The notes below the pieces were generated by a model that ran no database searches, was not told the DNA's origin, and saw only the letters and a list, made by a program, of their open reading frames with translations. From IMG/VR virus record IMGVR_UViG_3300046782_000157: 64,000 nt of DNA; one strand, given 5' to 3'. The first letter of the stretch is position 1. Each line of letters starts with the position of its first letter. The stretch is from an uncultured virus (IMG/VR IMGVR_UViG_3300046782_000157) (Duplodnaviria > Heunggongvirae > Uroviricota > Caudoviricetes). The position numbers and the translations under genes were made by a program. This document shows positions 2,400 through 54,420 of this stretch, piece by piece.

Positions 2400-2425
2400 T
2401 CATCCACTCCGACTAGGAGAAGCCG

Positions 2426-2875: not shown

Positions 2876-2891
2876 TCAGTGAGGAGGCAAC

Positions 2892-3332: not shown

Positions 3333-3335
3333 CCA

Positions 3336-3737: not shown

Positions 3738-3738
3738 A

Positions 3739-4074: not shown

Positions 4075-4111
4075 TGTTGCTCGCTCCCGCAACGGAGATG
4101 GGGCCGGTGGC

Positions 4112-12078: not shown

Positions 12079-12095
12079 GAGAGGGGGTGAAGTAA

Positions 12096-12536
12096 ATGGC
12101 AGAATCCACTGGTGGGCCAACTCGCAAGGACACCTACATCCTGAACGTCATCGTGAATGGTATCAGGCTGGGAGTGTTCGACAAGATGACCGGAGGAGAT
12201 CTGGACTCCGACGAGTTCAAGTATTATCCCGGAGGCATGGTGCCGCCTGTCTCTCTCGGAGGCAAGGTCAACCCTGCCAACTTCGTCGTCTCGCGTCTGT
12301 ATCGTCTAGCGCGCGACCACGATTACGTGCAGAAGCTCTACAACGGCGTCGGCAAGTACGACTGCAAGGTCATCAGACAACCATTGGACATCGACTCCAA
12401 TCCGTACGGATCACCGATCGTCTGGAACGGTACGCTCAAGCGCGTCACCGTTCCTGAAGTCGATTCAGAGTCCAGCGATCCAGGCCTGCTGGAGCTGGAG
12501 TTTACGCCGCAGGGCAACCCGCAGGTCAGCGGCTAA
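12096..12536 (+). CDS. tail tube protein
   Basis: 146 aa directly after sheath. Confidence 0.75.
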   Translation: MAESTGGPTRKDTYILNVIVNGIRLGVFDKMTGGDLDSDEFKYYPGGMVPPVSLGGKVNPANFVVSRLYRLARDHDYVQKLYNGVGKYDCKVIRQPLDIDSNPYGSPIVWNGTLKRVTVPEVDSESSDPGLLELEFTPQGNPQVSG

Positions 12537-12558
12537 CGAGATACTGGGAGGGAGCGCC

Positions 12559-13146
12559 ATGCCATTGCCAGAAGATGAAACGAGGATCTATCATCAGCCG
12601 GAGCCAGGAGGCATGACTGAGCCTCTTGACCCCGAGGAACAAGAGCCGAATGGGCTTGTCTCGGACGGCGTGCAGCGGAACATCATGGATCAACTGCGCG
12701 CTGTCCGCGACGAGCAGACTGCCGGCGTTACCTGCTTCATCGCGGTGCCGGGCTATCGAGGACAACTGAAGGCAGAGTACGGAGTCCTGCCTACAAAAGA
12801 GATGAACAACATGGGCAGGAAAGTCGAACGACAGTTCAGAGACGCCGCCGACCGGCAGCTGAATGGTCTCATCGATATCCTCATCTCTGCTTGTGAAGGA
12901 TTGTTCTTCGTAGAGGAGGACGGCGGCTTGACCGCCATCGACCCTGACAGCTCCGGGATTCCTCTCACCTACACCGACCACCGCACTGCGGGCTTCTTCA
13001 AGCTTGGGGAAGTATCCAGCGCCCGAGGATGTCTAATGGGCGTCTTCCTGAACAACGAGCCCAGCATTCTCGCTCACGGATTGAAGTTGAGTCGCTGGTA
13101 CGAGGACACGTCGAAGGAAGTTGACGAGAGTTTCCTGGGGGAATAG
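12559..13146 (+). CDS. tail assembly chaperone (G-like)
   Basis: Between tube and tape measure; ends in slippery GGGGGAA-TAG. Confidence 0.75.
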   Translation: MPLPEDETRIYHQPEPGGMTEPLDPEEQEPNGLVSDGVQRNIMDQLRAVRDEQTAGVTCFIAVPGYRGQLKAEYGVLPTKEMNNMGRKVERQFRDAADRQLNGLIDILISACEGLFFVEEDGGLTAIDPDSSGIPLTYTDHRTAGFFKLGEVSSARGCLMGVFLNNEPSILAHGLKLSRWYEDTSKEVDESFLGE

Positions 13147-13349
13147 AAGCCAGCGATGAGATCACTCAAGCCGCACAAATACTCCTCGCTGGCGGAGATC
13201 CTCTGCGGTGGCTCAATGGGGAAGATGCGTTCGAGACAGGGATCATGTACCAGGTAGCTCTCAAGGCGATCGAGCTTCAACGCGAGATCCTTCATGAGGA
13301 TCTCGCTCGTCGTACGGCAAATGCAGTATCGAGGATGTTCAAGAGATAG
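13137..13349 (+). CDS. -1 frameshift extension of tail assembly chaperone (GT-like)
   Basis: GGGGGAA at 13137-13143; -1 frame open (GIEASDEIT...SRMFKR) to TAG 13349, overlapping the tape-measure GTG. Confidence 0.75.
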   Translation, partial: GGIEASDEITQAAQILLAGGDPLRWLNGEDAFETGIMYQVALKAIELQREILHEDLARRTANAVSRMFKR

Positions 13350-15544
13350 TGGCCATTGTCACTGATCAGATGGTTATCCAGACCCGGTTGGAGGGAGCTA
13401 CCTCCGTTGCTGCCGGGCTGGATGCCATCGCGATCGCGGAAGGTAAAGTCGCTGTTGGCGCTGAGGCGGCTCAGGCAGGGCTAGCCAAGACACAGCGGAA
13501 GGGTTTTCTGCTCATGCAGACGCTCTTCACTGCTCGTCGCGTCTTGTACGGATTCTCTCTCGCTCTGGGAACTGCGGTGGCTGGAACGGTTGCCCTCGGA
13601 TTCCAGTTCGACTCCTTCAAGCAGCAGAGCACGCTCGCGTTCACGTCGCTGTTAGGAAACGCTCAGGCTGCCAAGGATGAGATCTCGCTCCTCTTCAATA
13701 TCGCTGCGAAGACACCGTTCACGTTCCAGAATGTCACGGCTACGGCTCGACAGTTCTTGGCGTTCGGATTCTCGTTGAAGCAGACCAATCAGTATCTCAA
13801 TGTCCTGGGCGATACCGTGTCTGCGTTCGGACTCAGCGGTGATCAGATCTCTCACCTGGCAGTTGTCTTCGGACAGATCCACCAGTCCGGTCGTTTGCTC
13901 GGCCAGGACATGAGGCAGCTGGAGCAGGCCGGCATCCCGGTCTTCCCGGCTCTGCGCAAGGAGCTGGGTCTAACCCAGGCACAGATCCAGGCGTTCATGA
14001 AGGGTCAGCTGATCATCCCGAGCCAGTACGGCATCCCGGCCATCATGAAGTATCTCCAGCAGAGGTTTGGAGGCATGGCCGCGATTCAAGCCAAGACGTT
14101 CCAGGGCGAGGCGTCTACCTTCAAGGACTACCTGGGTCAACTGATGGGCACTTTGGAGGAGAGCCTATTCAATCGAGCCACCAAGTCCCTGGGAGGAGTC
14201 AACGACGCTCTCACCAAGTTGACTAAGACTGCACAGACCAAGGGCTTCACAGCGTTCATCAGCCAGCTCGACGGCATGCTCGGCCTTGGAGGCAAACTCG
14301 TATTCGCGGTGAATACGTTGAAGGATGCGTTCATCACCTTCTACCGCTACGAGCGCATGGTATGGGGAGTATCCAAAGACCTAGCAAACATCCTCATATA
14401 TATGTTCGTGCCTCTTTATTTAGTGTTCAAAGCAGTCGAATGGCTTGTGAACAACGGGCTCGTCCCTCTCAAGTATGTTCTCTACGTTGTTCTTGGCTCT
14501 TTGGTTGCCTGGAAAATCGCCATGATTTATGTCAGGATCGCTACCCTTCTGTGGGCAGCGGCAACGGGCATTGCAACATTCGCAATGTGGCTCCAGCAAG
14601 CAGCCATTGTGGCTGTGTTCGTGGCGACGGAGTTTCTGAACGTCGCACGCAAGGATGGAATCGCCTACGCTCTCTACACGATGGCGGTCAACATAGGTCT
14701 GGTCGGCGCGTACGAAGCAGTCACAGCCGCCGCCTCTTCAGCCGCCGCCGCAACCTGGGCGTTCACCATCGCGCTGCTCTCTAACCCGATCACGTGGGTT
14801 GTTCTGGGGACAATCGCGCTGATCGCAGTCTTCACGATCTTGATGGTCAAGGTCAAGGCGTTTCGAGAGTTCATGCTGCACTACGGAGGATTCATCATGC
14901 TATGGATCCCTGGCCTCCAGATCGTCGGCACTGTCCTGCTCATCATCGGATACTTCAAGCAGCTACAGGATGCGTTCGGCGGCACTGTGGACTTCATGAA
15001 GAATCACTGGAAGGACTTCATCTTGTTCTTCCTGACCTTCGGTGTTGGCAACCTGCTATACCACTTCTGGGATCCAATCGTCACCAACTTGACCATAGCT
15101 GTGAACTGGATCAAGGGAATCTTCAACGATCTCTTCAGTTGGATCACGTCACATGCCAAGGACGCTCTCGATCCTCGCAACTGGATCCCATTCGGCCTCG
15201 GATCTCTAGTCGGTGGCAAGGGCAAAGTCGGTTTCAGTTGGAAGGATCTGCTCAAGATCGGCTTGCCAGGCCCGCTCTCTGGCATCTTTGCTGATGGTGG
15301 AGTCACTCCTCATCGAGGCTACGCAGTCGTAGGCGAGAAAGGCCCAGAGCTAGTCTGGTTGCCTGGTGGCTCTCACGTCCGGCCACTCGCGCCGGTTCCT
15401 GACACGGGCGCTTTCCAGCAGCTGCCCGCCGCAGGGCAGGCAGGGCCACGCGAGCTGACGATTCACGTTCCAGTCCACCTCAATGATGGCGTCCTTGGCA
15501 ACACGTTCGCCAAGTTGATGCTTGACCAGATGGCGAGGGCATAG
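13349..15544 (+). CDS. tape measure protein
   Basis: AAKTPF...FLAFG...LGD.VSA tape-measure domain, hydrophobic helices, C-terminal FADGG...VGEKGPELV. Confidence 0.9.
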   Translation: MAIVTDQMVIQTRLEGATSVAAGLDAIAIAEGKVAVGAEAAQAGLAKTQRKGFLLMQTLFTARRVLYGFSLALGTAVAGTVALGFQFDSFKQQSTLAFTSLLGNAQAAKDEISLLFNIAAKTPFTFQNVTATARQFLAFGFSLKQTNQYLNVLGDTVSAFGLSGDQISHLAVVFGQIHQSGRLLGQDMRQLEQAGIPVFPALRKELGLTQAQIQAFMKGQLIIPSQYGIPAIMKYLQQRFGGMAAIQAKTFQGEASTFKDYLGQLMGTLEESLFNRATKSLGGVNDALTKLTKTAQTKGFTAFISQLDGMLGLGGKLVFAVNTLKDAFITFYRYERMVWGVSKDLANILIYMFVPLYLVFKAVEWLVNNGLVPLKYVLYVVLGSLVAWKIAMIYVRIATLLWAAATGIATFAMWLQQAAIVAVFVATEFLNVARKDGIAYALYTMAVNIGLVGAYEAVTAAASSAAAATWAFTIALLSNPITWVVLGTIALIAVFTILMVKVKAFREFMLHYGGFIMLWIPGLQIVGTVLLIIGYFKQLQDAFGGTVDFMKNHWKDFILFFLTFGVGNLLYHFWDPIVTNLTIAVNWIKGIFNDLFSWITSHAKDALDPRNWIPFGLGSLVGGKGKVGFSWKDLLKIGLPGPLSGIFADGGVTPHRGYAVVGEKGPELVWLPGGSHVRPLAPVPDTGAFQQLPAAGQAGPRELTIHVPVHLNDGVLGNTFAKLMLDQMARA

Positions 15545-42709: not shown

Positions 42710-42854
42710 TTGGCACCCTCCTTCGATGTATCCTACAATGTGCTGCAGCCATGGACAACGGCTGCAAGGGGCGTCTTCACCCCTCGGGATGTCCCTGGAA
42801 GCAGGAAGCCAGAGACACCCCGAGCGGTGGGGCGGGTTGCCCCGCCCTCGCCAC

Positions 42855-43226
42855 TCACTTCTTCAATCGGCTCCGTCGCCGGGTCTTGGCTACAATTTTG
42901 ACGCCTGAGCGTGTCTGCTCGGGGAGTCTGTTGTGCCGGACTTCCTGAACGATCGTTTTGATCTGATCGTCGTTCAGTCCTTTGATCCCGACCACATCTT
43001 CCAGCCCAACCGTTCGCATGTTCGTGTGGATCTCACGTCCTCGATCCACCATTCGGTCGGAGTAAAACTGGACGAGTGGCTGCTTTCGGAAGCCTGATGA
43101 CGTCTGGCCAGCAGGCAGGAAGCGTATGTACTTGGCGCAGAACACTTCGTCTGTGAACGTGATGGAAGTCTCGTCATCAGCGTTCATGAGTTCGCTTCGA
43201 GTACGCACGCTCCTGCCTTCTAGCAA
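42855..43226 (-). CDS. hypothetical protein
   Basis: ORF between helicase and DNA-binding gene. Confidence 0.55.
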   Translation of the reverse strand: MLEGRSVRTRSELMNADDETSITFTDEVFCAKYIRFLPAGQTSSGFRKQPLVQFYSDRMVDRGREIHTNMRTVGLEDVVGIKGLNDDQIKTIVQEVRHNRLPEQTRSGVKIVAKTRRRSRLKK

Positions 43227-43258
43227 CGCCTTCAGTTCATCATCAACATCGATGTGAA

Positions 43259-43738
43259 CTAAGGGCGCTGGGAGAGTGCCGACCTCCGACGCACCTTGTC
43301 GGACTTGGGCTTGTTGGTGCTTCCTTTCGGCCTACCGGGGCCGCGCTTCTCAGTCGTATCTGATGCCGGCTTCTTGCTGGCCGATGCCCCGTTGGCGCTG
43401 GCCTTCCGGCCGCGACTGATGGAGTGCTTCTCCAGCACGTCGCCATACTCGTTCTTGAGCTGGGAGACGCTGACGCCGGTGTACGCTGCGATGCGCTCGA
43501 CGCGCAGACCGCGAGCCCGTGCCTTCTTGACGTTGGCCTCGGTGAGCTTGAACTTCAAGCTCGGGTCGATCACAACTTCCGCCGCGTACAGGATCTGGGC
43601 CGCCATTGGCCTGGCGACCTTGTACTTGTCCTGGATCGCGTCGAACTTGGCGCTGTCCTTGGCGTCCCCCATCTTCTTGATAACGGGGGCCACCTTCTGA
43701 ACCATGGTGGGGTCAGCACCCTTTGCGACTCTGGCCAT
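43259..43738 (-). CDS. basic DNA-binding protein with HTH-like segment and AT-hook
   Basis: RBS GAAGGAGGG; ERIAAYTGVSVSQL; KRGPGRPKGS. Confidence 0.65.
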   Translation of the reverse strand: MARVAKGADPTMVQKVAPVIKKMGDAKDSAKFDAIQDKYKVARPMAAQILYAAEVVIDPSLKFKLTEANVKKARARGLRVERIAAYTGVSVSQLKNEYGDVLEKHSISRGRKASANGASASKKPASDTTEKRGPGRPKGSTNKPKSDKVRRRSALSQRP

Positions 43739-43784
43739 GAGTCCCTCCTTCGTGGTAGTGGTGGATTAGGCCACTAGGGATGAT

Positions 43785-43813
43785 ATCGTAAAGTGGCCTG
43801 GATGGCTAGCCAA
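43785..43813 (-). promoter_or_regulatory. possible sigma70-type promoter
   Basis: TTGGCT-17 nt-TACGAT on - strand, preceded by hairpin GATCAAAACCCC/GGGGTTTTGGTC (~43821-43854). Confidence 0.35.
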
Positions 43814-43861
43814 CCATCCCGACCAAAACCCCATGATTACCAGGGGTTTTGATCGGCATAG

Positions 43862-44191
43862 TTAACTCGTCAATGCAAGCGCCCAGGCTGCACCTTCAGC
43901 GAAGCTCTCGACTTGATAGCCCGCTTCCTTGACAGGCTCGCCCTTGTGGAGCAGGTACTGGCGAGTCGTGAGCGTTCGCTCGCGTGCGTTGTATGGATTC
44001 AAAGCGACACGGACGACTGAGAGATCGCCGTTGTCCACCTGGAGCAGCTTCGGATGTTCTTTGGCGACATGTACACAGGCCTCATTGTGAGTCCCGAGCT
44101 TCATGTTGCAGGCCTCACAGAACTTCATCTGTACGACCTTGAGGCCTGGGAACTCGAATGACTGAATCCAACCAGCTTCTGCTTTAAGCAT
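43862..44191 (-). CDS. early hypothetical protein
   Basis: RBS GAAGGAGGGTCA. Confidence 0.6.
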   Translation of the reverse strand: MLKAEAGWIQSFEFPGLKVVQMKFCEACNMKLGTHNEACVHVAKEHPKLLQVDNGDLSVVRVALNPYNARERTLTTRQYLLHKGEPVKEAGYQVESFAEGAAWALALTS

Positions 44192-44259
44192 TGACCCTCC
44201 TTCTGAAGTTCGTATGAACTCCGAGCCTATCCGTCGTGTCGGACGGACAGACTCGCAGA

Positions 44260-44439
44260 TCACTTCGCGCTGACGATCCTGTATGAAGATGCTTCATTGA
44301 CGCCGATGATAACGTCTGCTTCGCCATCTGTCGGATTGAGCATCTGGGCCAAATGTGCACGTATCTGCTCAGGCGTTTGTTCGGGGCCGACAAGCCACTC
44401 AACCTCTACTTCAATCATGATGTAGACTGGATCATCCAA
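44260..44439 (-). CDS. early hypothetical protein (59 aa, TTG start)
   Basis: Lies exactly between two hairpin elements; manually translated. Confidence 0.55.
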   Translation of the reverse strand: MDDPVYIMIEVEVEWLVGPEQTPEQIRAHLAQMLNPTDGEADVIIGVNEASSYRIVSAK

Positions 44440-44506
44440 TCAGAGCACCCTCCCTTCTGGAGTTCTGATGAACTCCGAGCCTACTCCAATGGAGTAGACT
44501 CGCAGC

Positions 44507-45022
44507 TCACCTCTTGATGCTGTCGTATGCTGCTTTGAACCAGTCCATCGCTCGTCCTTCGTCGATGCTGGAGTCGTTGTACTCGATGATGAGCGACTCC
44601 AGCTGCTCGATGCTGTAATCCTTGATCTCGTCGTCGCTGAGTGTCAGGTCTTCTTGTTCAATCTCGCCGAAGTTGTTTGTTACCTCAGGCCGTTCGCTTC
44701 TCGGAATCGCCAGCGCGAGCGCACGCAACGACTTCTCCAATGCCTTCAACCTGGCCTTGGGGAATTCACCGCCTTTGAAGTAGTGCGATGGGTTCTGGAT
44801 CGTCGGGCAGTATGCCGTCAAGCCCGAGTCCCAGTCGTCAGACTTTGCGATGACGACACGAGCGAGCTTCGCGTTGATGACTGCGAGGCCGACGGCGCAG
44901 CCGTGCGGCTTCTTGTTGCCGTTAGCTTCCGCTTCCTGCATCAATTCGCCACAGAGCCAGTGTCCGGCTCGGATGTCCAGGATGGACTCCTCCAGCACGA
45001 CCTTGGCTGTCATTCTCGGCAT
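44507..45022 (-). CDS. early hypothetical protein
   Basis: RBS; CAVG and YND motifs. Confidence 0.6.
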   Translation of the reverse strand: MPRMTAKVVLEESILDIRAGHWLCGELMQEAEANGNKKPHGCAVGLAVINAKLARVVIAKSDDWDSGLTAYCPTIQNPSHYFKGGEFPKARLKALEKSLRALALAIPRSERPEVTNNFGEIEQEDLTLSDDEIKDYSIEQLESLIIEYNDSSIDEGRAMDWFKAAYDSIKR

Positions 45023-45167
45023 TGACCCTCCTTCGGTTACGGTACTCTCATGAGCACCGGCCGGCACCCAAAGGTACCAGCCGCTGATCACTACTTTCGC
45101 CATCTCTCCCGAATGATCATCCACAATATACGGAACCAGCGTGGTGACAGAAAGATTGGCGGTTGTG

Positions 45168-45437
45168 TCATTTGTGGATGACGCCGATCAGGCGCTCGAT
45201 CGGGATGGACATCTGCTTGCCCTTGGCAGGGCCGTTTTTGGGCCAGAACTTCACCCATCGGTTTCCATGTTCGTCGGTGAAGAACTCGACAGGCATCAAT
45301 TCCCTCTTGGGGTTTCTCGGCCTGTTTACGGGCACAGTCTCTCGTCTGATAAAGTAGATGGCGTTGCCATCTGACTCCTCGACCAAGACCGACTCGACGT
45401 TGTCCAAGACGATGTTCTCCTGTGGTGCTTCAACCAT
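45168..45437 (-). CDS. early hypothetical protein
   Basis: Overlap-coupled ORF. Confidence 0.55.
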   Translation of the reverse strand: MVEAPQENIVLDNVESVLVEESDGNAIYFIRRETVPVNRPRNPKRELMPVEFFTDEHGNRWVKFWPKNGPAKGKQMSIPIERLIGVIHK

Positions 45438-45685
45438 TATGCCTCCGTGAACTTGTGAATCGCCACGGGATCGGGATCATGGGCGTCGAACAATTCAACA
45501 CCGATGTCGTCGTTCTCGTAGCGATGGATGAATAAGCCGAAGATCACACGGTTTCCGATCTTGAAGATGAGGTCGTGCTCCCAATCCATTCGTTCTGGCA
45601 ATACCGGGAGCTGGATCGCAGCTGTGACGCCAGCCTCATCATAAGTAACGACCTTGACCTTGAGGAGCTTCGGCAGATTTGTCAC
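45437..45685 (-). CDS. early hypothetical protein
   Basis: RBS after hairpin element. Confidence 0.55.
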   Translation of the reverse strand: MTNLPKLLKVKVVTYDEAGVTAAIQLPVLPERMDWEHDLIFKIGNRVIFGLFIHRYENDDIGVELFDAHDPDPVAIHKFTEA

Positions 45686-45765
45686 TTCAGCATGACCCTC
45701 CTTCGTGTAATCGGAGTCGGGTGACTCCAGCCCCCGGTGACCGCAGAGTCAACCGGGAGCTGCAA

Positions 45766-46101
45766 CTACCCTGACATCCGTCGTATGTATGCTTGTAACG
45801 GAGTGTCTCTGTTGTCTCTTTGTTCTTGGATAGTTGCCCATCGACAATTACCGGGTTCGTAGTTCCCGTCATTGTCGATTCTGTCGATCTGCTTGCCTGG
45901 TGGTCGTACTCCCATGTCCGCCAGGAAGTTCTCGAACTTGAGCCAGCGTTCGCAAACCTTAATGCCTCGTGCTCCGTACTTGTAGTACGAATCGGCATTA
46001 GGATTCATGCAACGCTGTTTCATTGTCGTCCAGATTCGGTATGTGCTGGTAGGCTTTCCACCCTCACAGTGACCATGAGTTATCTGGCCGCCGGGCTTCA
46101 T
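45766..46101 (-). CDS. HNH endonuclease
   Basis: W..MKQRC.NP...YG.RGIKVC.RW..F..F..DMG...IDRIDNDGNYEPGNCRWAT. Confidence 0.9.
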   Translation of the reverse strand: MKPGGQITHGHCEGGKPTSTYRIWTTMKQRCMNPNADSYYKYGARGIKVCERWLKFENFLADMGVRPPGKQIDRIDNDGNYEPGNCRWATIQEQRDNRDTPLQAYIRRMSG

Positions 46102-46322
46102 CCGACTTGCTGGACTGGGTAGTGCGGCTTGATGTGCTTGTTGATATAGCTGCCAACGCTTTGCGCGTTAGCCGCTACAACAGCACGTTGGTATGGCACG
46201 CCTGTGTAGGCGTACGTCTTGCCGCTCTTGTATGTGACGTACATGATGCTCTTGTCACTATCCCAAGAGATCGACTCGACATTGCTGGAGTGTGGAACTG
46301 GAATCGGTCGTCGTGTGCTCAT
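46098..46322 (-). CDS. KTSC-domain protein
   Basis: SSNV.SI.WD.....V.YKSG.TY.Y.GVP...A.SVGSYINKHIK. Confidence 0.85.
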   Translation of the reverse strand: MSTRRPIPVPHSSNVESISWDSDKSIMYVTYKSGKTYAYTGVPYQRAVVAANAQSVGSYINKHIKPHYPVQQVG

Positions 46323-46516
46323 TTCGCACGCGCTTCCCCGGCCATAAACCGCTTGGCTGCTTCCTTGGGCTTCATCCCCGCCATGTACCAGTCGTGCAAC
46401 AGATCTTCGTCGCACTCGTCGCGCATGGTCAGATAGATTTCGCCCGTCTCAGCTTCGCGCATCTTGCTGACTTGATCGCCGAAGCGATCGCTCCAGTGAG
46501 AGAACGTGTAGCTCAT
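46319..46516 (-). CDS. early hypothetical protein
   Basis: ATGA-coupled. Confidence 0.55.
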   Translation of the reverse strand: MSYTFSHWSDRFGDQVSKMREAETGEIYLTMRDECDEDLLHDWYMAGMKPKEAAKRFMAGEARAK

Positions 46517-46770
46517 GTGATCGAGTCCAGGAATTCTTGCGCTTCACTTGCTGAGCAAGGATTATCCCACTCATCGAACATGTCTCTAGCTAGCTCCCAT
46601 GCTGTCGGCAGCCGCTTATTGCGGTACCACAGCAGACAGAGAGCGTCGAGCCACATGAATGGACGCTGATCACCAGGGCCACGCTCGACATCTGGGATGT
46701 TGTCAAGCTTGATGCCGGCCTCGCGCATCTCGCGCTCAGCTTCTTCCCAGGCGTGTTCGGGCTCGGTCAT
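46513..46770 (-). CDS. early hypothetical protein
   Basis: ATGA-coupled. Confidence 0.55.
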   Translation of the reverse strand: MTEPEHAWEEAEREMREAGIKLDNIPDVERGPGDQRPFMWLDALCLLWYRNKRLPTAWELARDMFDEWDNPCSASEAQEFLDSIT

Positions 46771-46970
46771 GTGATCACCTTGTTGGCCTTCAGCAGATCC
46801 ACGATCGTCTGGCGGTCGGCGTTGACGTTACCAGTCCGAGCTAGCCAGAGACAGTAGTCGATGATCTCGCCTCGGTTCTTGTACTCAACGCTGAAGATCT
46901 CCTTGTTCGTGGATGTCTTCACCGTTACGACATGTCCGACACGAGTCACGCTAATGTTGACCTGAGCCAT
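46767..46970 (-). CDS. early hypothetical protein
   Basis: TGATG-coupled. Confidence 0.55.
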   Translation of the reverse strand: MAQVNISVTRVGHVVTVKTSTNKEIFSVEYKNRGEIIDYCLWLARTGNVNADRQTIVDLLKANKVIT

Positions 46971-47500
46971 CACCAGCCTTCTTTCGCCGCACAAATTGGG
47001 CCAATGCCGAGTGCGCGACTGCGCTCGTCGGTGAGCGTCCGTCCGCAGATCCCGCAATGGCCCAGCTCGCGCCCGTAGCGCATGCTAGCCTCTTTGGGGT
47101 CTTTGGCGATCTCCGTCATGATAGACTTCCTGTGCTCCGTGTTCTTGATCGGATAGCGTTCATCCGATGCACGGACGCTCAGGAATGTGTAGCCTGCCCA
47201 CTTGCCCTCGGTCGGCTTGTCCACATGGTAGAACTTCAGGACATCGTCCATCGGATCGACCACTGCGTACCTGCCGGCCGGGATGTCAGGCCAGTCTCGA
47301 CTGACCTGCTTCTTAGGCAGTCCCTTCATGACGTCAATGATCCGGCTCGCTTCGCCCTTGCTGAGCTTTCGCGTGCCGGCATCGACCTTGGCGATGAAAG
47401 CAGCTTGCTTCTCCGTGATCTCATGCTTCTTGGCGAGATCGTGGAGATACTCAAGCTGATTCTCCGATGCTGGATCCTCTGTCCAGGCTGTCGTTGCCAT
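46970..47500 (-). CDS. DUF6011-like zinc-binding protein
   Basis: CGICGRTLTDERSRALGIGPICA; N-terminal ASENQL.YL.DL. Confidence 0.75.
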   Translation of the reverse strand: MATTAWTEDPASENQLEYLHDLAKKHEITEKQAAFIAKVDAGTRKLSKGEASRIIDVMKGLPKKQVSRDWPDIPAGRYAVVDPMDDVLKFYHVDKPTEGKWAGYTFLSVRASDERYPIKNTEHRKSIMTEIAKDPKEASMRYGRELGHCGICGRTLTDERSRALGIGPICAAKEGW

Positions 47501-47572
47501 ATGCCCTCCTTCGGGTTTGGTACTCGGCTGAGCACCGGCCCACCTCATTGCTGAGATGAGCCGCTGATCAAG

Positions 47573-47752
47573 TCACTTCAGGCATTTGAGGCAAGTAATG
47601 GGATGTCGAGTCTTGACCAGCACCATTGGATGACCATTCCACGGCTTCACGGGCTGTCCGCAGACGGGTTCGCCCGATGAGTTCCGCTCATGGTACTTCA
47701 AGCTGCTGTCAAGACTGGGCGTGATCTGCATCCTGATTTGAAGAGTCACCAT
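47573..47752 (-). CDS. small Cys/His protein
   Basis: H...CG...ITCLKCL; manually translated. Confidence 0.5.
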   Translation of the reverse strand: MVTLQIRMQITPSLDSSLKYHERNSSGEPVCGQPVKPWNGHPMVLVKTRHPITCLKCLK

Positions 47753-47940
47753 CAGTTACGCCCGATTTCGCATGCCCGTGTCTGACATTCTGGATCGCTG
47801 GACTTAACTTGGTTGGCCAGCATCAGAATGTATTGCGGCCCGCCATGATAATCCCCACCACAGCAAGCTGTGCCATCGCTGCGAAGACTGTGCACTGTTC
47901 GCCACTTTCGATGAACAAGCACTTGACGTGTCTTCACCAT
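47752..47940 (-). CDS. small Cys/His protein
   Basis: RBS; VH...CCG...C...C. Confidence 0.55.
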   Translation of the reverse strand: MVKTRQVLVHRKWRTVHSLRSDGTACCGGDYHGGPQYILMLANQVKSSDPECQTRACEIGRN

Positions 47941-48010
47941 TTGACCCTCCTTCTGGTACTCGGCTGAGCACCACACCCTGCCTTCGAGGGCAGGATGCGC
48001 TACTCAGTTG

Positions 48011-48190
48011 TTATCCGTGGTATTCATTGCTGAGGTGTGAGACGATATGGATGTGAGTATGTACCGGAGCGTTTTCCAGAAGATGACGGATGTAGAACGT
48101 CGCTGTTGCCAGCTCCGTGAACTTCTTGAACGTGCCTTCGCCGGATTCGCCACCCATCCACACTTCGTACACAACGTGTGGTTCGTCCAC
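48011..48190 (-). CDS. early hypothetical protein
   Basis: RBS then GTG. Confidence 0.55.
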   Translation of the reverse strand: MDEPHVVYEVWMGGESGEGTFKKFTELATATFYIRHLLENAPVHTHIHIVSHLSNEYHG

Positions 48191-48255
48191 GCTACCCTCC
48201 TTCTGGTGCTCTTCTGAACACCGAGCCTCACAATTGTCTTTGTGAGACTCGCTAC

Positions 48256-48561
48256 TCAGCTGACTGTTTCTTGGTAGATGATACCTCTGATCATCGGGGC
48301 CCACTCGGGCGAGTCAGGCCCGTAGTTGGTCGCTGAGAACACGTCCATGTCGGCCCTGACGACACTCGGCGTCTCGTTGTCAGCTGCTGGTTCCTCGGGG
48401 TCGAGCTTCTGACGGATCTCTAGCTTGAACATCGGCGTGCCCATGCTGTCGCAGATGATCATCTCGACATCACCTTCGGGAAGTGAGACTCTTGATACGA
48501 GAGAGAGATCATCGGCAACTTCGAGATACCACGGAGTTGGAATCAGCTCGGGTTCATCCAT
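48256..48561 (-). CDS. early acidic hypothetical protein
   Basis: RBS; stop inside hairpin element. Confidence 0.6.
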   Translation of the reverse strand: MDEPELIPTPWYLEVADDLSLVSRVSLPEGDVEMIICDSMGTPMFKLEIRQKLDPEEPAADNETPSVVRADMDVFSATNYGPDSPEWAPMIRGIIYQETVS

Positions 48562-48628
48562 CTGACCCTCCTTCGTTGCGGTACTCGGATGAGTACCGCG
48601 CCCACCCCATGCGGGGAAGACGCGCTAC

Positions 48629-48766
48629 TCATTTCTTTTTCTCGCAGTCGTCACAGATGCCGGCCACGATGTTGCTTCCGGTGATCTGTGCTTGAAATAG
48701 ATCCTGCGATGTGACCTGGACGTACTTGAATTTGTGACACTTGGTGCAGTAGCCAACAAGTCTCAT
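48629..48766 (-). CDS. small zinc-finger protein
   Basis: CTKC...CDDC; manually translated. Confidence 0.55.
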   Translation of the reverse strand: MRLVGYCTKCHKFKYVQVTSQDLFQAQITGSNIVAGICDDCEKKK

Positions 48767-48999
48767 CCTGGGCACTCGCTTTCAAGATGAACGAGATCGA
48801 GATCACCCTGGCTGTCGATCGCATCGTAGACTCTCAGCCCGAACTTGATGGGCACGCGAATGCGATTTGGCTGGGTTTTCCAGGTTTTTACCTGGCCGTT
48901 CACTCGCCAGCGTTGACACGTACCGTCGGCATTCTTGTAGAAGTCATGATGCAGAACGTCGCCGGGCTTCAACGCCTTGGCTTGTTCTAGCGTGATCAT
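48763..48999 (-). CDS. early hypothetical protein
   Basis: RVNG.VKTWKT.P...RVP.KFGL. Confidence 0.65.
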   Translation of the reverse strand: MITLEQAKALKPGDVLHHDFYKNADGTCQRWRVNGQVKTWKTQPNRIRVPIKFGLRVYDAIDSQGDLDLVHLESECPG

Positions 49000-49217
49000 G
49001 TCGACACCTGGCCCTGGGGCGAGATGCCGCCGTAGATCGGCTGACCATGATCAGTCCAGTGCATCGTGAAGCACAGATAGTTGTTCGGCAGATCGAGTCC
49101 GCCCTTCTGAACAACCACGTTTTCAAGTTTCGGGTTGTTAAGAAGAACATCAATGCTTTTCTTCTGCGCTGTAGTCATGGTATTGAAAGCCTCTTGGGTC
49201 ATCTTGACCTTGATCAC
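48996..49217 (-). CDS. early hypothetical protein
   Basis: Coupled ORF. Confidence 0.55.
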   Translation of the reverse strand: MIKVKMTQEAFNTMTTAQKKSIDVLLNNPKLENVVVQKGGLDLPNNYLCFTMHWTDHGQPIYGGISPQGQVST

Positions 49218-49597
49218 TTATGTGACCTCCATGCGACGATCTTGTCTCCGGGCAGGAAGATGACTGGCTTCTCCATCTGCGAGTGAAGAAAGCGATGCTT
49301 GTGCTTAACAACCTGTTCGCCCTCTGTCACCAGGCCACAGTCGCCCTCGATGTAGTACACACCGAATTGGAATGTGACGTAGTGCTCGAACTCTTGCCCT
49401 GACCATTTCGATTCAAGCTTGTTGTCTGGATCGAACGTCCAGGTGCCGAGATCCGAGAACTTCTTGCCAATCTGATATTCTCTGTCTGGATCTTCATCCA
49501 TGTAGGCCACGGTGTAGCAGAAGTCAAGCATCTGCTGATCCCAGATGAGATCCTTGCGACGCTTACCCTTCCGCTCCACATATATGTTGAGTGGCAT
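49214..49597 (-). CDS. early hypothetical protein
   Basis: RBS after element. Confidence 0.6.
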   Translation of the reverse strand: MPLNIYVERKGKRRKDLIWDQQMLDFCYTVAYMDEDPDREYQIGKKFSDLGTWTFDPDNKLESKWSGQEFEHYVTFQFGVYYIEGDCGLVTEGEQVVKHKHRFLHSQMEKPVIFLPGDKIVAWRSHK

Positions 49598-49662
49598 TCT
49601 GCCCTCCTTCGTGGTGTCGTATGAACACCGACCCACTCACTGTTAGGTGAGTGAGTCGCTAT

Positions 49663-49950
49663 TCAATCTTCATCCGATCTCAGCTTCTCTGTGAGCAGTC
49701 TATGGATCTCGCGGAGGATAGCTTGCTGATCGGACGGACTGAACCTCTGCTCCCAGATCGGCTTCTTGACTGGCGTCCTGGGTGGCTTTGCTGCTGGCTG
49801 TGGCTTCGGCTTGGCAGTGTACTCGCGAATGTCGTTTTTCCTGATAACATCCTTGATCCCACGACCGTGCAATCGCCACCATGCCATGATGAGTGCGATG
49901 GTGAACATTGCTGCCGGGATGTCGATGAAGATGAACTTGACGTAACTCAT
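49663..49950 (-). CDS. early membrane protein
   Basis: N-terminal hydrophobic helix; stop inside element. Confidence 0.55.
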   Translation of the reverse strand: MSYVKFIFIDIPAAMFTIALIMAWWRLHGRGIKDVIRKNDIREYTAKPKPQPAAKPPRTPVKKPIWEQRFSPSDQQAILREIHRLLTEKLRSDED

Positions 49951-50190
49951 GATGAAGGCGATAGTGCTACTAGGAACACGTACACGCCTATGATCAAGAG
50001 CGCGATCACAATTCCCAACACGAGGAGTCGGGACGCCATCCAGAGAATGACGAACTGATCTTGCCATCGTTTTGGGATCTTGATGGTCACCTTACATCGA
50101 TGCTGTTCCCGAGTGGTTTCATTTGACCCTCCTTCGGATGATGCTCATTTGAGCACCCGCCAACACACTCTGCGATGTGCCAGCGGCTGA

Positions 50191-50424
50191 TCAAATACGA
50201 ACAGCGATGAAGTCTCGCAGCCTTCCGTTGCCGATTAGGATTGTTGCGATCCACTGGTGGGTGTCGTTTCCTGTTCGGCGCTCGCGGATGATGCGTTGTC
50301 TGTTTCCCGCAAAATCATGCAAAGCGTGCATCGCGGTTGGTGCTTCGATGACAGCAACTTTGCGGAATGTCCCTGCGCCTCTGCCATCGTACCACGTTCT
50401 GATCTCGAATGTTCCCATTGTCAT
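50191..50424 (-). CDS. early hypothetical protein
   Basis: Coupled; stop inside element. Confidence 0.55.
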   Translation of the reverse strand: MTMGTFEIRTWYDGRGAGTFRKVAVIEAPTAMHALHDFAGNRQRIIRERRTGNDTHQWIATILIGNGRLRDFIAVRI

Positions 50425-50792
50425 CTCAGCAGAACCTCCGGCCCGAACCAGATGTGGTTCATGACCGTGACGACACGATGTGCGATCTTATGAGCCATCC
50501 AACCATCACGATGAGGGTTGTCTTCTTCGAGGCCAGCGTTCTCTGCCTCGATCTCGATGTTGTCTGTGATCGGCACCATGAGCATCTTCATCAGCTCTGG
50601 TGGACATGCTTCCCAAATGCAAGCAGGGTTGCCCCACTTGGCATCCTCGATCGCAATACGTTCTGCGAGCTTAGGCGTGAGCCCACGCTCGTGAACGCAT
50701 TCCGAACAGAGCCATGTTCTGACGATGATGTTGTCGTCGGTGCTTTCCGTGACCATGGTTGTCGGACATCCGAAACACCTGATGATTGCCAT
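50421..50792 (-). CDS. early zinc-ribbon protein
   Basis: RBS; CFGC...CSEC. Confidence 0.6.
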   Translation of the reverse strand: MAIIRCFGCPTTMVTESTDDNIIVRTWLCSECVHERGLTPKLAERIAIEDAKWGNPACIWEACPPELMKMLMVPITDNIEIEAENAGLEEDNPHRDGWMAHKIAHRVVTVMNHIWFGPEVLLR

Positions 50793-50857
50793 TTGACCCT
50801 CCTTCGTTGTGATGAATACCAACCGCTCCGGGGGACAACTCCCGGAGCAGCTGCTAG

Positions 50858-51148
50858 TCACCAGCTTTTGTACGGTGACAGCGCCTTGACGCGATCGAGA
50901 TATTCCGAGGCGTCGTGAAGCTGTGTACCTTCTTCATCGCAAGTGTCGAACTGGTCGAACTTGTCGATGAAAGCCCACTCGCCAGCGTCACCCATGTAGA
51001 TGTAGCCGACGAGTCTGCCGTCAATCTCGTACACGTAGCACTCGTAGTTCGTGTCGATGTCTGGGTAATCACCAATGATGTCTTTGGCATACAGCTCTGC
51101 TGTGTGCTCTAGATCCTGACGAAACTCAGACTCAGTCATTTCTTTCAT
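50858..51148 (-). CDS. early acidic hypothetical protein
   Basis: Coupled; stop inside element. Confidence 0.6.
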   Translation of the reverse strand: MKEMTESEFRQDLEHTAELYAKDIIGDYPDIDTNYECYVYEIDGRLVGYIYMGDAGEWAFIDKFDQFDTCDEEGTQLHDASEYLDRVKALSPYKSW

Positions 51149-51348
51149 GGGATCTGCTTGACGAAGACGGCTGCTCTGAACTTGGTGTCAACGCGATTGA
51201 AGCCGTGGTTGATCAGCTTCTCGATCAGACGTTCACCGTCGTCTACGTGAATGATCTTGACGGATTCGATCTCTTTCTGATCGATGATGGACACGACTTT
51301 CACTTGCTTGTCGCTGACCGGGATCAGTGAAACGCGCTTAACGCTCAC
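51145..51348 (-). CDS. early hypothetical protein
   Basis: Coupled ORF. Confidence 0.55.
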   Translation of the reverse strand: MSVKRVSLIPVSDKQVKVVSIIDQKEIESVKIIHVDDGERLIEKLINHGFNRVDTKFRAAVFVKQIP

Positions 51349-51566
51349 GCTGTCACCTGATCCTTTGTGATCCAGAGCTGGCCGGAACCTGTGCCCAAGC
51401 TGTCGTACGCTCGATACAGCTTCCAGTGCTTATCGCAGCCATGACCCCACGGCCCGTAACGAGTTTTGAAGTCGTACGGCCCTGGTGTCTTCATGCCTTC
51501 TTGATTGCAGAAATCGCAATCGGGAATGCGAGGCACGACGCAGACTTTTCCCTTTTCTGCTTTCAT
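51345..51566 (-). CDS. early Cys-containing protein
   Basis: CDFC...YD.KT..GPW...C...G.G.GQ. Confidence 0.65.
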   Translation of the reverse strand: MKAEKGKVCVVPRIPDCDFCNQEGMKTPGPYDFKTRYGPWGHGCDKHWKLYRAYDSLGTGSGQLWITKDQVTA

Positions 51567-51638
51567 TCTGTGCGACCCTCCTTCGTTTTGGTGGTTTGAA
51601 CACCAGCCCTGTCGGATTATATCTGACAGAGCTGCTAC

Positions 51639-51962
51639 TCAATACCTGCTTTTCGAGACGAGCTTGCCGTTGTCGAAGCAGAACTGATAGCTGCCGTTCT
51701 GGCTGAGAATGCCGTAGTAGATACAACGGCTGTTCAATGTGCCGCCGTAGCCACCGACAGTTGTGTCGTCGCTGCTCTGAGGACTGCCGAACGAGCTTCT
51801 CACGTAGCTTTCGCTGACGCCAATTGGCATGATAGCGAAAGCATTGGGATCGACCTGAGCACTTGACTTATCGCTCGCGTCGGTGATCCCGTGAAGTGCG
51901 AATGCTCCACCGCCTACAAAGAGGCTGAGTAGCAGCAGAATGGTGATGAATGCGCCTTTCAT
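51639..51962 (-). CDS. exported protein with BamE/BLIP-like domain
   Basis: Signal/TM helix; F..M.IG.S...V...FGSP; F.NGKLVSK. Confidence 0.6.
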   Translation of the reverse strand: MKGAFITILLLLSLFVGGGAFALHGITDASDKSSAQVDPNAFAIMPIGVSESYVRSSFGSPQSSDDTTVGGYGGTLNSRCIYYGILSQNGSYQFCFDNGKLVSKSRY

Positions 51963-52048
51963 TTTACGACCTTCCTTCGTTTTGTTTTTATTTGGTTCTG
52001 TGTCTGCTGACACAAGCCGCTACACGTTGTCCTGAGTAGCAGCTTCTA

Positions 52049-52369
52049 TCAGTTGACGATACTGTGATCCTTGATGCTGATCCAGCCGCATTCGCCTTCA
52101 ATACACATCACGATTCCTCGCAATGTCGGTCTGCTGTCAAGCCCTTCGCCGCCGCCATAGCGGTTGCTAGGATCGAAATCACTGATCCAGACACAGATTT
52201 CATATCCGAGTTGCTCGGCGTAACAGTAGAAGATGATCTGATCACCTTGGACACCAGCTACTGTCCAGTGAGGGCTGACATATTCGCCTTCATACTGATT
52301 GGCGATCCAGTCAGCTTTGACTTCGCGGTCAGTTGCTGTCCAAACTTTTGCTATGAACTCTGGCTTCAT
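52049..52369 (-). CDS. early hypothetical protein
   Basis: RBS; stop inside element. Confidence 0.6.
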   Translation of the reverse strand: MKPEFIAKVWTATDREVKADWIANQYEGEYVSPHWTVAGVQGDQIIFYCYAEQLGYEICVWISDFDPSNRYGGGEGLDSRPTLRGIVMCIEGECGWISIKDHSIVN

Positions 52370-52434
52370 TGGCCCTCCTTCGTTTTTGTGTTCTGTAGTA
52401 CAAGCCGCGTCGGTTGTCCACGACGCAGCTTCTG

Positions 52435-52533
52435 CTACAGATGTCCGACTGCGCGCCCAATGAGTGCGCAGATGATGACGACGATTGGCGCAGCCGTGAT
52501 ATACGTTGGCCAAGCATCTTTCCACTTGTACAT
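52435..52533 (-). CDS. small membrane peptide
   Basis: MYKWKDAWPTYITAAPIVVIICALIGRAVGHL between two elements. Confidence 0.5.
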   Translation of the reverse strand: MYKWKDAWPTYITAAPIVVIICALIGRAVGHL

Positions 52534-52607
52534 GTGTACCTTCCTTTGTTTTTTATCGTTCAAGGCCGAGCGGGTTGTCCTTCGCTCGACCTTCAACGCG
52601 CGGCTTG

Positions 52608-52946
52608 TTACGCCGCGATATGCTTCGCACAGCGGTGAACTCGCTTGCCGTCTTTGAATAGCGACATGATCGCGAGTGCTCCGCACTTCTCGCCTTTGAC
52701 CGCTTGTCCGTTATACGTTGAGCCCGCAGGCCCGAGTTTTGTACGCTTCGTGCGCTTCTTCTTGAAGAACACTGTCGTCGTTTTGCCTACGAATGCGTCG
52801 CACGCTTCGGCGACTGCTAGCTCGCGGTCGATTGCGGGCGTAGCGGTTGCTCCGCTTATTCTTGAATCCCGGCTTTGTCCCGGGCTTCTTGCGGACTTCG
52901 TCGATACCGGCCCTCTGCTTTTTGCCGGCTTTTTACGTTTTGCCAC
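52608..52946 (-). CDS. basic early protein
   Basis: RBS GAAGGAGGGTCA then GTG. Confidence 0.6.
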   Translation of the reverse strand: MAKRKKPAKSRGPVSTKSARSPGQSRDSRISGATATPAIDRELAVAEACDAFVGKTTTVFFKKKRTKRTKLGPAGSTYNGQAVKGEKCGALAIMSLFKDGKRVHRCAKHIAA

Positions 52947-53174
52947 TGACCCTCCTTCGGGGCTTATTGAATTGCTCCTCGATTCGGATTATTCGGTTGA
53001 ATCGAGGACGTGCGGAAGCGGGACGTACGCTTACACGGGGGTTTTTGACGGCGTGCTTATGCCTTGCCGCTTTTCCCGCTCGGGTGGTGCGTCCCTCCTC
53101 CTTCGGTCGCTTAGGCGCGACCGGGGAGGGGTCGAGAGAATCGGATTCTCTCGACCTCCCCCGCTCGATCCCTG

Positions 53175-53549
53175 CTAGGCGCGAGCCTTACGATACGCGC
53201 CGGACGCGAGCCGTCCCGGTCGCTTCGCGGCTACCGCGTAGCCGCCGAGGCGGTCTACGTTCGCCCGGGTCGGGCGGAACCCGAAGACGATCGGGAGGGC
53301 GTACGCTCGGAGATCCGTCGGCGACTCGGCGAGTACCGCCCGAACGTCGGCCGCGCGTACGTCTTCGATCCGCTCGAACGAGCCGACCCGACTCGGGATT
53401 AGACCCGCGTCGCGGCGAGCCGCGTAAGAGATCTCGCGAGTCGACCACTTCTTCTCGCCGCCGTAAACGGCCGCGTCGATCTCGGCGTCGGTCTTTCCGG
53501 CCGCCGCGAGCTTCGCGATTTTGTTCTCGTTACTTTTACTTACGGACAT
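53175..53549 (-). CDS. first gene of leftward operon, CA/TG-depleted
   Basis: RBS GAAGGAGG; no Gln, His or Cys. Confidence 0.65.
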   Translation of the reverse strand: MSVSKSNENKIAKLAAAGKTDAEIDAAVYGGEKKWSTREISYAARRDAGLIPSRVGSFERIEDVRAADVRAVLAESPTDLRAYALPIVFGFRPTRANVDRLGGYAVAAKRPGRLASGAYRKARA

Positions 53550-54189
53550 TTCGTTCCTCCTTCGGAACTCCGGAATTGCCGTTCCGGTATCGGGAACCGC
53601 GGTACGCGGCTCGCGAGACGCGATACCGGAAATTGAAATCGGGAATCCGGTCGCGCCTCGCGAGCCGTCCGAGGTCGAGAGAATCGAATCGAATCTCTCG
53701 ACCCCGGCGGCCCGCCGAAGGAAGGAAGGTCTACGGCTCGCGCGCCTACGCTCTAGAGCCCGGGCGCCGCCCCTATCTACGGGGGACGGCGACCCTACGC
53801 GCGTCCGATCGAGTCCCCCGGGCGGCTATAGGGCGGGCGGGGGAGGGGAAGCCGTAGACCGCCCCTCCGAAGCCCGCGCGTAGCGATCGCGCGGCTCCTC
53901 CGACTAGTACCGCTCGCCTCTCTCCTCGGCTCGACCGAGGGATAACGTCGGCGCCCGTCTCCGGCTCCCTAAGCCTATTAGGGGGTCGGACGGGAATCCG
54001 CGTAACCCTAAACCGAGATCCCCGCCACGTAGCCTCCCTAGGCTACGGGAGGGTGGAGGGTTGGATACTAGGGGGTCTAGAAAATCCCTGCTAATAGGGA
54101 CTATTCAGTGATCGGACGGGACGGGCTAGACCCGCATCAATTAGCCCGAAAAATGTAGAAAAGGGACTCCGGCCACGTACCGGCAAACC

Positions 54190-54420
54190 TGAGGTGAAAC
54201 ACAAAATTTGCTCAATTGCAATTGCTAAAAACAGTGTTAGAAACAAATTGATGTAAAAATCATGAAAACCACCCCTTTTCCAGCTAAAAATCACAAAAAT
54301 CATGAAAAATCACCCATCAATATGAAAAACATACAGAAAAATCCAAAATAAAAACCAATTCTGCAGAAAACCCCTGGAAATCAACACCGTTTTCCAAATA
54401 GAAAACGCACCAATTCACTT
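54190..54420. other. AT-rich A-tract region at strand divergence; candidate terminus/pac or origin
   Basis: Many A4-A6 runs; AAAATCATGAAAA twice. Confidence 0.45.

Follow-up and report, generated by a model that had tools for sequence, protein, structure and literature searches.

Our analysis of the early genes of an uncultured tailed phage revealed a repeated intergenic RNA element that lies between the stop codon of one small gene and the SD sequence of the next. The element can form either of two mutually exclusive folds, both of which exist and are under selection. Judging from sequence, we consider it somewhat more probable than improbable that RNase III cuts the element at a T7-like site and that the downstream product then refolds into a hairpin that caps its 5′ end. 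The two folds are then read more simply as precursor and cleavage product than as the states of a regulatory switch, which the first-pass annotation had proposed; its suggested link to cleavage or stability appears to point in the right direction. RNase III sites between phage early genes have been known for decades, and the built-in cap hairpin is the new part.

The analyzed stretch of 64,000 nucleotides, here referred to as the window, covers most of a tailed-phage genome, with genes for terminase, portal, capsid, sheath, and tape measure on the plus strand and for a DnaE-type polymerase, primase, exonuclease, and helicase on the minus strand. All the elements reside in a run of small minus-strand genes upstream of the DNA helicase gene (43259 to 53549), presumably a polycistronic early region. 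Nearly all of these small genes belong to no known family, DUF6011, KTSC, and HNH being the ones recognized, and the homologues of a 159-amino-acid protein of the window bore no informative names. No promoter consensus coincided with the elements, and no intrinsic terminator (a G+C-rich hairpin followed by a U-tract) was found after either fold at any of them, the linkers being A/C-rich; since the elements carry no promoter- or terminator-like sites, the region probably gives rise to a single transcript. The nearest cultured relatives are actinobacteriophages (helicase identity of approximately 31 to 33%), and on this basis our guess is that the host is actinobacterial. The set of genome contigs searched for a host contained no relatives of the helicase, and a pattern scan of the same contigs gave seven matches in unrelated taxa, none of which was confirmed by the covariance model described below. 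Cultured phages shared only short matching pieces with the early region, the HNH gene being among the matches listed. Domain searches of five phage records detected no RNase III, integrase (PF00589), or Y1 transposase (PF01797) domain, and the window contained no tRNA or tmRNA.

The gene content between the elements varies among relatives through gains, losses, and one move. An element-flanked gene encoding 171 amino acids (45022 to 44507) follows the 176-amino-acid DUF6011 gene in the window and precedes the 176-amino-acid gene in related locus L090 (5848 to 6378), and the relatives examined lack many of the element-flanked genes. The record containing the window is 129,757 bases long, about twice the size of complete relatives (59 to 64 kb), and is possibly a concatemeric assembly. 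The stretch between the divergent gene blocks (52950 to 54400) is rich in palindromes and CG, contains long perfect hairpins, and is likely a control region or genome end.

Read along the minus strand, the element consists of a basal stem of 5 to 7 bp, a 1×1 G·G mismatch, and an upper stem, followed after 5 to 30 nt by the SD sequence AAGGAGGGU; every element is followed by a strong SD of its own, whose GGGU presumably fits the usual anti-SD poorly. The mismatch is numbered as column 0, with negative columns toward the base of the stem, and its 3′ G is designated j. The upper stem measures 11 to 13 bp in the continuous hairpin (fold A). As the first-pass annotation had recognized in the copies at 48575 to 48633, 48200 to 48260, and 47950 to 48008, a single segment, GGURYUCA, has two possible partners: it pairs either with the upstream UGAGUA arm in fold A or with the downstream GAGYACC, giving a second hairpin (hairpin 2, the hallmark of fold B). 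Because the same bases are used by both, the two pairings are mutually exclusive, as had been claimed. A covariance model built from 13 window copies recovered these 13 and two more, so that the window holds 15 copies, all on the sense strand between a stop codon and an SD and spanning 44200 to 52599.

In the element at 48575 to 48633, the stop codon UGA (48631 to 48629) lies in the basal arm, the G·G mismatch (48625·48596) is followed by a 12-column upper stem, hairpin 2 extends from 48597 to 48580, and the SD begins at 48573, ahead of an ATG at 48561; the predicted cut in the 3′ strand falls between 48598 and 48597. The next element (48200 to 48260) likewise holds its UGA (48258 to 48256) in the basal arm, with the mismatch at 48252·48221, hairpin 2 at 48222 to 48205, the SD at 48202, and a GTG at 48190; here folds A and B are nearly equal in energy (0.41/0.58). 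The third (47950 to 48008; mismatch at 48000·47971, hairpin 2 at 47972 to 47955, SD at 47952, and ATG at 47940) is preceded by an open reading frame that was called from its SD (48190 to 48011) and that ends at a UAA (48013 to 48011) 4 nt before the arm, so that the UGA within the arm (48006 to 48004) is out of frame; neither frame had homologues. The element at 47514 to 47572, in which the model favors hairpin 2, also has its real stop (47575 to 47573) outside the arm, 2 nt before the arm UGA. The earlier assumption that the arm UGA is the stop of the upstream gene thus fails for these two copies; the stop is inside the arm in 89 of the 117 copies described below.

The remaining copies vary this scheme. 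Both folds can form, with the stop in the arm, at 50135 to 50195 and 49607 to 49667, and both are also available to a divergent copy after the HNH gene (45710 to 45771; UAG stop in the arm) and to the copy at 45036 to 45092, which follows a tandem UAG-UGA stop. At 51994 to 52053, a 5-bp basal stem starts on the UGA stop, hairpin 2 is present, and a long A/C-rich linker leads to the SD. The copies at 44454 to 44511 and 44200 to 44264 have U-A at column −1 and a compensated hairpin 2. As previously noted, a UAG stop is matched by CUA within 52371 to 52437 (element at 52382 to 52440), and the related loci L090 and L104 add UAA/UUA and UAG/CUA matches. The annotation was also correct that hairpin 2 is weak or absent in a few copies: it is absent at 50800 to 50862, where the stop lies in the arm, and at 52540 to 52599, where the stop precedes the mismatch by 16 nt and the upper stem opens with AAGGUC/GGCCUU, and we additionally found it absent from the UAG/CUA copy and weak at 51583 to 51643, again with the stop in the arm. 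Among the copies at 52540 to 52599, 52382 to 52440, 51994 to 52053, and 50800 to 50862, the loop of the upper stem reads GGACAA(C) in three and its reverse complement GTTGTCC in one; both orientations recur in related locus L060 (near 1350 and 3500), and the loop could be a site of loop-loop pairing, loop inversion, or protein binding.

Several lines of evidence established that both helices are real. In the 13 aligned window copies, 96% of fold A cells are paired and 12 of 16 pairs have changed on both sides, and the corresponding values for hairpin 2 are 85% and 5 of 7. Both covariation scores far exceeded those of slid controls, and neither was reached in any of 500 shuffles, which bears out the earlier statement that both helices covary. 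The three elements within 47941 to 48631 yielded folding z scores of −4.2 to −6.0 for the whole structure and of −4.4 to −6.4 for the isolated hairpins 2.

We then relied on copies from relatives, gathered by helicase similarity and by pattern search. The first pattern scan returned 59 loci, mostly with single matches, and the covariance model found 48 matches in relatives, all on the coding strand and placed between stop and SD. A scanner for the G·G element, which demanded pairing at columns −1, +1, and +2 and left the identity of the bases there free, was run on the window and on loci L060 to L168 minus L091 to L102; it detected clusters upstream of the helicase gene in some loci and no or single matches in most of the distant ones. 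Among hairpins with a 1×1 mismatch close to an SD in 23 early regions, the mismatch was G·G in 101 of 204 on the coding strand, a share conditional on the regions having been picked because they had matches, and in 0 of 9 on the antisense strand; downstream of the helicase gene (147 kb), it was G·G in 3 of 20. Eight more regions and a relaxed basal score increased the collection to 128 distinct matches, from which 11 were removed (nine had no called upstream stop, two of them looking like real copies, and two were located inside an open reading frame or nested). The curated set thus comprises 117 copies from 27 related loci, with three stop offsets set by hand; since the copies are related, counts over this set are not counts of independent events. 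In related locus L090 (5709 to 5835), two elements stand in tandem, the first without an SD of its own. Neither the window nor any of 14 related loci had an Rfam match at the gathering score, and a search of Rfam and of the literature, mostly outside subscription journals, found no published description of the element. The cultured relatives PBI1, Marietta, and Flapper carry other intergenic motifs, not this element.

The larger set confirmed and refined the picture. The upper stem has 9 to 14 columns in 100 of the 117 copies, and a hairpin 2 of −2 kcal/mol or lower is found in 101, compared with 27.7 expected from tail shuffles, and is missing from the other 16. When the arms were swapped between copies within a locus, Watson-Crick pairing fell in all six basal columns (at most 3 of 2,000 swaps reached the observed value) and, in hairpin 2, at j−1, j+1, j+2, and j+3 (0 of 2,000). 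An A-U or U-A pair occupies column −1 in 115 of 117 copies, in comparison with 85 of 468 pairs in four nearby paired columns; column −2 places a pyrimidine opposite a purine in 114 copies, and column +5 is U·G in 61. We detected no conserved unpaired bases beyond the G·G in this set. On the coding strand, G·U pairs outnumber A·C by 155 to 38, and the predicted fold of this strand is more stable than that of the complementary strand in 109 of 117 copies when treated as RNA and in 112 when treated as DNA. The G·U excess and the better folding of the coding strand indicate that one strand is used, and its position and orientation point to the mRNA. As the stem sequences change freely while pairing is kept by compensation and G·U wobble, the element most plausibly acts as an RNA structure.

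A feature that suggests a cut is the fixed 5′ edge of hairpin 2. The hairpin includes j−1 in 95% of 101 copies, with four Watson-Crick pair types that track changes in the upper stem. Position j−1 is Watson-Crick paired in 90% of these copies versus 66% in within-locus swaps (reached in 0 of 2,000), and j−2 is at chance (27% versus 32%). The edge does not depend on where the upstream gene ends: it is at j−1 in 28 of 29 copies when the stop lies at −8 or farther out, in 55 of 59 with the stop at −7 or −6, and in 13 of 13 with the stop at −5 to −2. A search anchored on hairpin 2 that made no demand for G·G still found G·G one or two columns after the first base in 69 of 102 matches. The 5′ edge is thus one base before the G·G, which is also the predicted new 5′ end, independently of the stop offset. 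Because j−1 is already paired while the upper stem stands, selection on its pairing is easiest to understand in a molecule that starts at j−1. When RNA from j−1 onward was folded in silico, hairpin 2 formed with a probability above 0.8 in 87 of 101 copies.

This edge coincides with an RNase III register. Like a T7-type RNase III site, the element forms a hairpin of about two helical turns that lies between genes, on the coding strand of what is presumably a polycistronic region. We scored 14 registers against a matrix of 85 E. coli in vivo sites (excerpt of PMC6212723), whose rules the host of the window phage may not share. The scores (mean log2) were −1.9 with G·G at position C, −2.1 with G·G at C′, and −5.3 to −12.5 for the others; as a control, the same matrix put T7 R1.1 in its known register, with the cut at nt 5887 (excerpt of PMC8708148). 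The fit is poor overall, with a mean log-odds of about −2 and positive values in 35 to 36 of 117 copies, and the two best registers stand out through the G·G column alone, none doing so once that column is omitted. In the E. coli set, G·G occurs at C (4 sites) and C′ (6 sites) and, as far as the excerpt goes, is missing from A, B, D, and E on both sides, and the commonest pair at C′ is U-A (43 of 85; PMC6212723). Two registers that looked attractive by eye were rejected, namely G·G at B, like the mismatch of R1.1 (−9.4), and G·G at E, which would place the cut right after the UGA and use the U·G as distal box (−12.5).

C′ and its mirror register C score equally. With G·G at C′, column −1 becomes D′, and the predicted cut in the 3′ strand falls just before j−1, that is, at the edge of hairpin 2; A-U or U-A then occupies this position in 115 of 117 basal half-sites and 10 of 117 upper half-sites. 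According to excerpts of PMC1540722 and PMC3074117, the E. coli and Aquifex enzymes require A-U or U-A at position 2 of the proximal box (pb2), a demand imposed by a conserved glutamine, and in its base pairs column −1 is this pb2 signature conserved from E. coli to Aquifex. The mirror register would make D a G-C or C-G pair in 101 of 117 copies, and its cuts, at −2/−1 and j+3/j+4, would destroy hairpin 2. Furthermore, in two copies found by the covariance model, G·A or U-A replaces the G·G and the partner base in hairpin 2 has become U; these copies fit C′ better than C. The predicted spacing between the two cuts, 23 to 26 nt, is within the range of short E. coli sites. The helix beyond the scissile bond has about 8 to 9 helical positions on each side in the favored register, short of the 11 bp needed in the E. 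coli minimal substrate (excerpt of PMC1540722), and 101 of 117 copies have G-C or C-G next to the predicted scissile bond, a feature that lowers the cutting rate of the E. coli and Aquifex enzymes (excerpts of PMC1540722 and PMC3074117). These rules may not transfer, since S. coelicolor RNase III cuts the internal loop of the pnp leader, unlike the E. coli enzyme (excerpt of PMC10126417); the preferences of B. subtilis RNase III resemble those of E. coli (excerpt of PMC11780869).

We therefore propose the following course of events, all of it conditional on the putative enzyme. Fold A, whose 3′ arm leaves the polymerase ahead of that of hairpin 2, would for this reason form first and act as the substrate. 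The good half-site would be the basal one, reading 5′ to 3′ N-G-W-R with G·G at C′ and A-U or U-A at D′, and the 3′ strand would be cut one base before the G of the mismatch. As the upper half-site is poor (U·G at C and G-C or C-G at B and D), a single nick is likely. The downstream piece, having lost its upstream partner, would close hairpin 2 from its very first base and so shield its 5′ end, with the SD, located 1 to 21 nt past hairpin 2, left free; the upstream piece would retain the upper stem as a 3′ hairpin, and single nicks that leave protective 3′ hairpins have been described (excerpt of PMC3867540). The stop codon would serve as the first three bases of the basal arm as well, which would save space, and a terminating ribosome would open fold A only transiently. 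If this is right, the design is a compact one in which the substrate stem carries the protector of its own 5′ end. The proposal gives a testable function, with a cut predicted to the nucleotide, to repeated stop-to-start spacers of uncultured, probably actinobacterial phages; more than 100 natural variants would chart which sites the RNase III of a high-GC host prefers, and variants of the element could serve as insulating and stabilizing operon parts.

The strongest competitor is translation-gated processing, in which a terminating ribosome opens the fold A substrate, hairpin 2 traps the 3′ arm, and cutting or expression follows upstream translation. Since a ribosome whose A site has reached the stop codon must unwind the basal stem, we keep this reading in play as an unlikely one, noting that it can add to RNase III cleavage and capping and that it would be the sole use of hairpin 2 if the mirror register were right. 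The position of the stop speaks for it: of the 117 copies, 58 have the first base of the stop codon at −6 and 114 have the stop within 16 nt of the G·G. So does the folding of the uncut RNA copy by copy, where fold A exceeded a probability of 0.8 in 62 of 101 copies and fold B in 14, with both above 0.1 in 27. The claim that a terminating ribosome would flip the fold was reproduced in silico, as 74 or 77 of the 101 copies shifted to fold B once the bases as far as +11 or +13, respectively, from the P-site codon were barred from pairing. The value of +11 is the limit of ribosome unwinding, and with the stop at −6 it frees exactly j−1. As in a switch, two conserved exclusive helices are thus present, one of them overlapped by the stop of an open reading frame. 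The elements have, however, no output fold in the form of a terminator or an occluded SD. The proposed effect of the flip on initiation of the next gene survives in part: opening the initiation region costs less in fold B, with a median saving of 0.3 or 1.0 kcal/mol according to the interval opened (a saving of more than 1 kcal/mol in 34 to 51 of 101 copies, an added cost of more than 1 kcal/mol in 13 to 17, and a saving of 4 to 6 kcal/mol in a few window copies), but the SD lies outside both folds and its unpaired probability barely changes (median of +0.02; above +0.2 in 13 and below −0.2 in 3 of 73 copies). Nor is the energy gap between the folds tuned, as it ranges from −5.8 to +1.5 kcal/mol (10th to 90th percentile) and is within 1 kcal/mol in only 22 of 101 copies. 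The constancy of the j−1 edge with distant stops, the 16 copies without hairpin 2, and the out-of-frame UGA in one of the three copies within 47941 to 48631 all count against gating as well. Of the regulatory switch once proposed, the exclusive folds and the in silico flip are supported, whereas an output through a terminator or an occluded SD is not. A stricter version, that cutting occurs only when the upstream gene is idle because each terminating ribosome would turn the RNase III substrate into the hairpin-2 fold, is in our view similarly doubtful; if the stacked upper stem and hairpin 2 were itself cut at the junction, cutting would proceed regardless of upstream translation. Were gating true, a 60-nt module present about 15 times per genome would combine stop signal, nuclease site, translation sensor, and 5′ cap.

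Three further explanations appear less probable still. A structure that is never cut, acting in ribosome termination, as an insulator, or as a barrier to exonucleases, with hairpin 2 keeping the junction structured while the ribosome stops, seems quite unlikely to us, even though stable structures right after the stop and more than 25 nt from the next gene are general in bacteria and block re-initiation (excerpt of PMC7518266), each element is followed by its own strong SD, and the stop distance of at most 16 nt in 114 of 117 copies agrees with the loose definition of a ribosome termination structure (RTS) given there. Such a role leaves unexplained the fixed G·G, the adjacent A-U or U-A, the U·G at +5, and the narrow stem length; all of these features come at the expense of stability and hence suggest recognition by a protein. 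Cutting by another agent, either a host or phage protein that recognizes the G·G helix or the RNA itself, as a new small ribozyme located where the upper stem meets hairpin 2, would accommodate the poor fit to the E. coli matrix, the many early genes without a known family, and the hammerheads that a distant relative carries in the same slot and that likewise cut between two adjacent hairpins. We nevertheless hold it to be very unlikely in view of the lack of conserved unpaired bases beyond the G·G, of Rfam matches, of an RNase III domain in the phages, and of a hammerhead core in the window or its uncultured relatives. The least probable reading, with very little in its favor, is a DNA-level element resembling attC or REP hairpins that bounds gene cassettes for recombination. 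The differing gene content between elements and the one element-flanked gene that moved would suit it, as would the GTAG at the stem foot of many copies, which we take to be a REP tag; but the 15 window copies and the 48 matches in relatives are all on the coding strand between stop and SD, G·U far exceeds A·C, the five phage records encode no tyrosine integrase or Y1 transposase, and shared sequence alone can account for gene shuffling.

Cut-and-cap processing by RNase III has close parallels in known systems. The early region of T7 is processed at the RNase III hairpins R0.3, R0.5, R1, and R1.3, among others such as R1.1, and similarly consists of a polycistronic message with repeated intergenic two-turn hairpins followed by an SD; some element copies even open the upper stem with the same AAGGUC/GGCCUU. 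The UGA of T7 gene 0.4 (1431 to 1433) pairs within the basal stem of the next hairpin, the upper stem of which resembles that of R1.1, and the stop of gene 0.7 adjoins the following hairpin; a link with the stop codon is thus no peculiarity of the window phage. T7 differs in having an asymmetric internal loop where the window phage has a 1×1 G·G, G+C-rich stems, and about 15 copies per genome; a covarying second hairpin accompanies 101 of 117 elements, and the predicted register is unlike that of R1.1. Downstream of the R1.1 cut, T7 5888 to 5909 could form a 7-bp hairpin from 1 nt past the cut, although this stretch overlaps the phi1.1B promoter region and may be a coincidence. The protective part of the proposal resembles S. 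aureus cspA, where RNase III turns a long leader hairpin into a short 5′ hairpin and the half-life increases from less than 2.5 to more than 16 min (excerpt of PMC3386247), and B. subtilis cggR-gapA, where a hairpin at the end cut by RNase Y protects the product from RNase J1 (excerpt of PMC11780869). In both, the downstream mRNA released by an endonuclease has a short stable hairpin at its start; as described in these excerpts, they are single chromosomal sites, whereas the window element is a repeated phage module whose cap borrows the 3′ arm of the substrate stem.

A different solution is found in Streptomyces phage Yara, a distant relative (helicase 31% identical). On the minus strand of MH019215.1 (47000 to 68671), we identified eight type II hammerhead patterns, unannotated in the record and scoring under the Rfam cut-off, each right before an SD between small genes and starting near positions 10984, 10760, 10289, 7903, 7063, 6427, 5576, and 5207 of that segment. 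No further patterns were found on either strand of 3.34 Mb (137 sequences), including the window and the uncultured relatives. One Yara hammerhead scored 29.2 bits against RF02276, under the cut-off of 37. Like the window element, the Yara hammerheads occupy the slot before the SD, and as predicted for that element, they would cut between two hairpins, with the product hairpin first and the SD last; seven predicted products begin with a hairpin within one base, as does the eighth by eye, the script having chosen an earlier site. The window element lacks the CUGANGA and GAAA core and the other conserved loop bases. Where an annotated stop is visible, the Yara hammerheads are located 5 to 10 nt from it; the tie between stop and arm is tighter in the window phage and its relatives, and space saving may not explain all of it. 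The cutting of polycistronic messages by bacterial hammerheads has been suggested but not settled (excerpt of PMC6765202), and Yara, being in culture, offers a way of testing whether ribozymes process early mRNA. If the RNase III reading is right, related phages would solve one task either by a host nuclease site or by self-cleaving hammerheads; if gating were true, the element would be the protein-dependent counterpart of the Yara arrays.

Among phages of Gram-positive hosts, B. subtilis phage SP82 has host RNase III sites in its early mRNA, upstream of strong SDs. These sites are cited in an excerpt of PMC4838370, and we liken the window element to them by description, not by sequence. The covariance model gave no match in the first 13.5 kb of SPO1; this region (1 to 13500) contains short hairpins right before the SD at apparent transcript starts, upstream of several host-takeover genes, as well as a longer repeated motif that precedes positions 5889 and 7212 and recurs on the opposite strand near 11850 to 12790. 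The SAS/ESAS motifs of actinobacteriophages also combine a conserved extended SD with a preceding repeated intergenic motif among small genes; in the excerpt of PMC7302621, they are conserved in sequence and of unknown role, in contrast to the stems of the element, which vary with compensation. The SD itself, across the window (42723 to 53562) and in related loci, is unusually fixed as AAGGAGGGU(C/AC) and resembles the SAS motifs of other actinophages.
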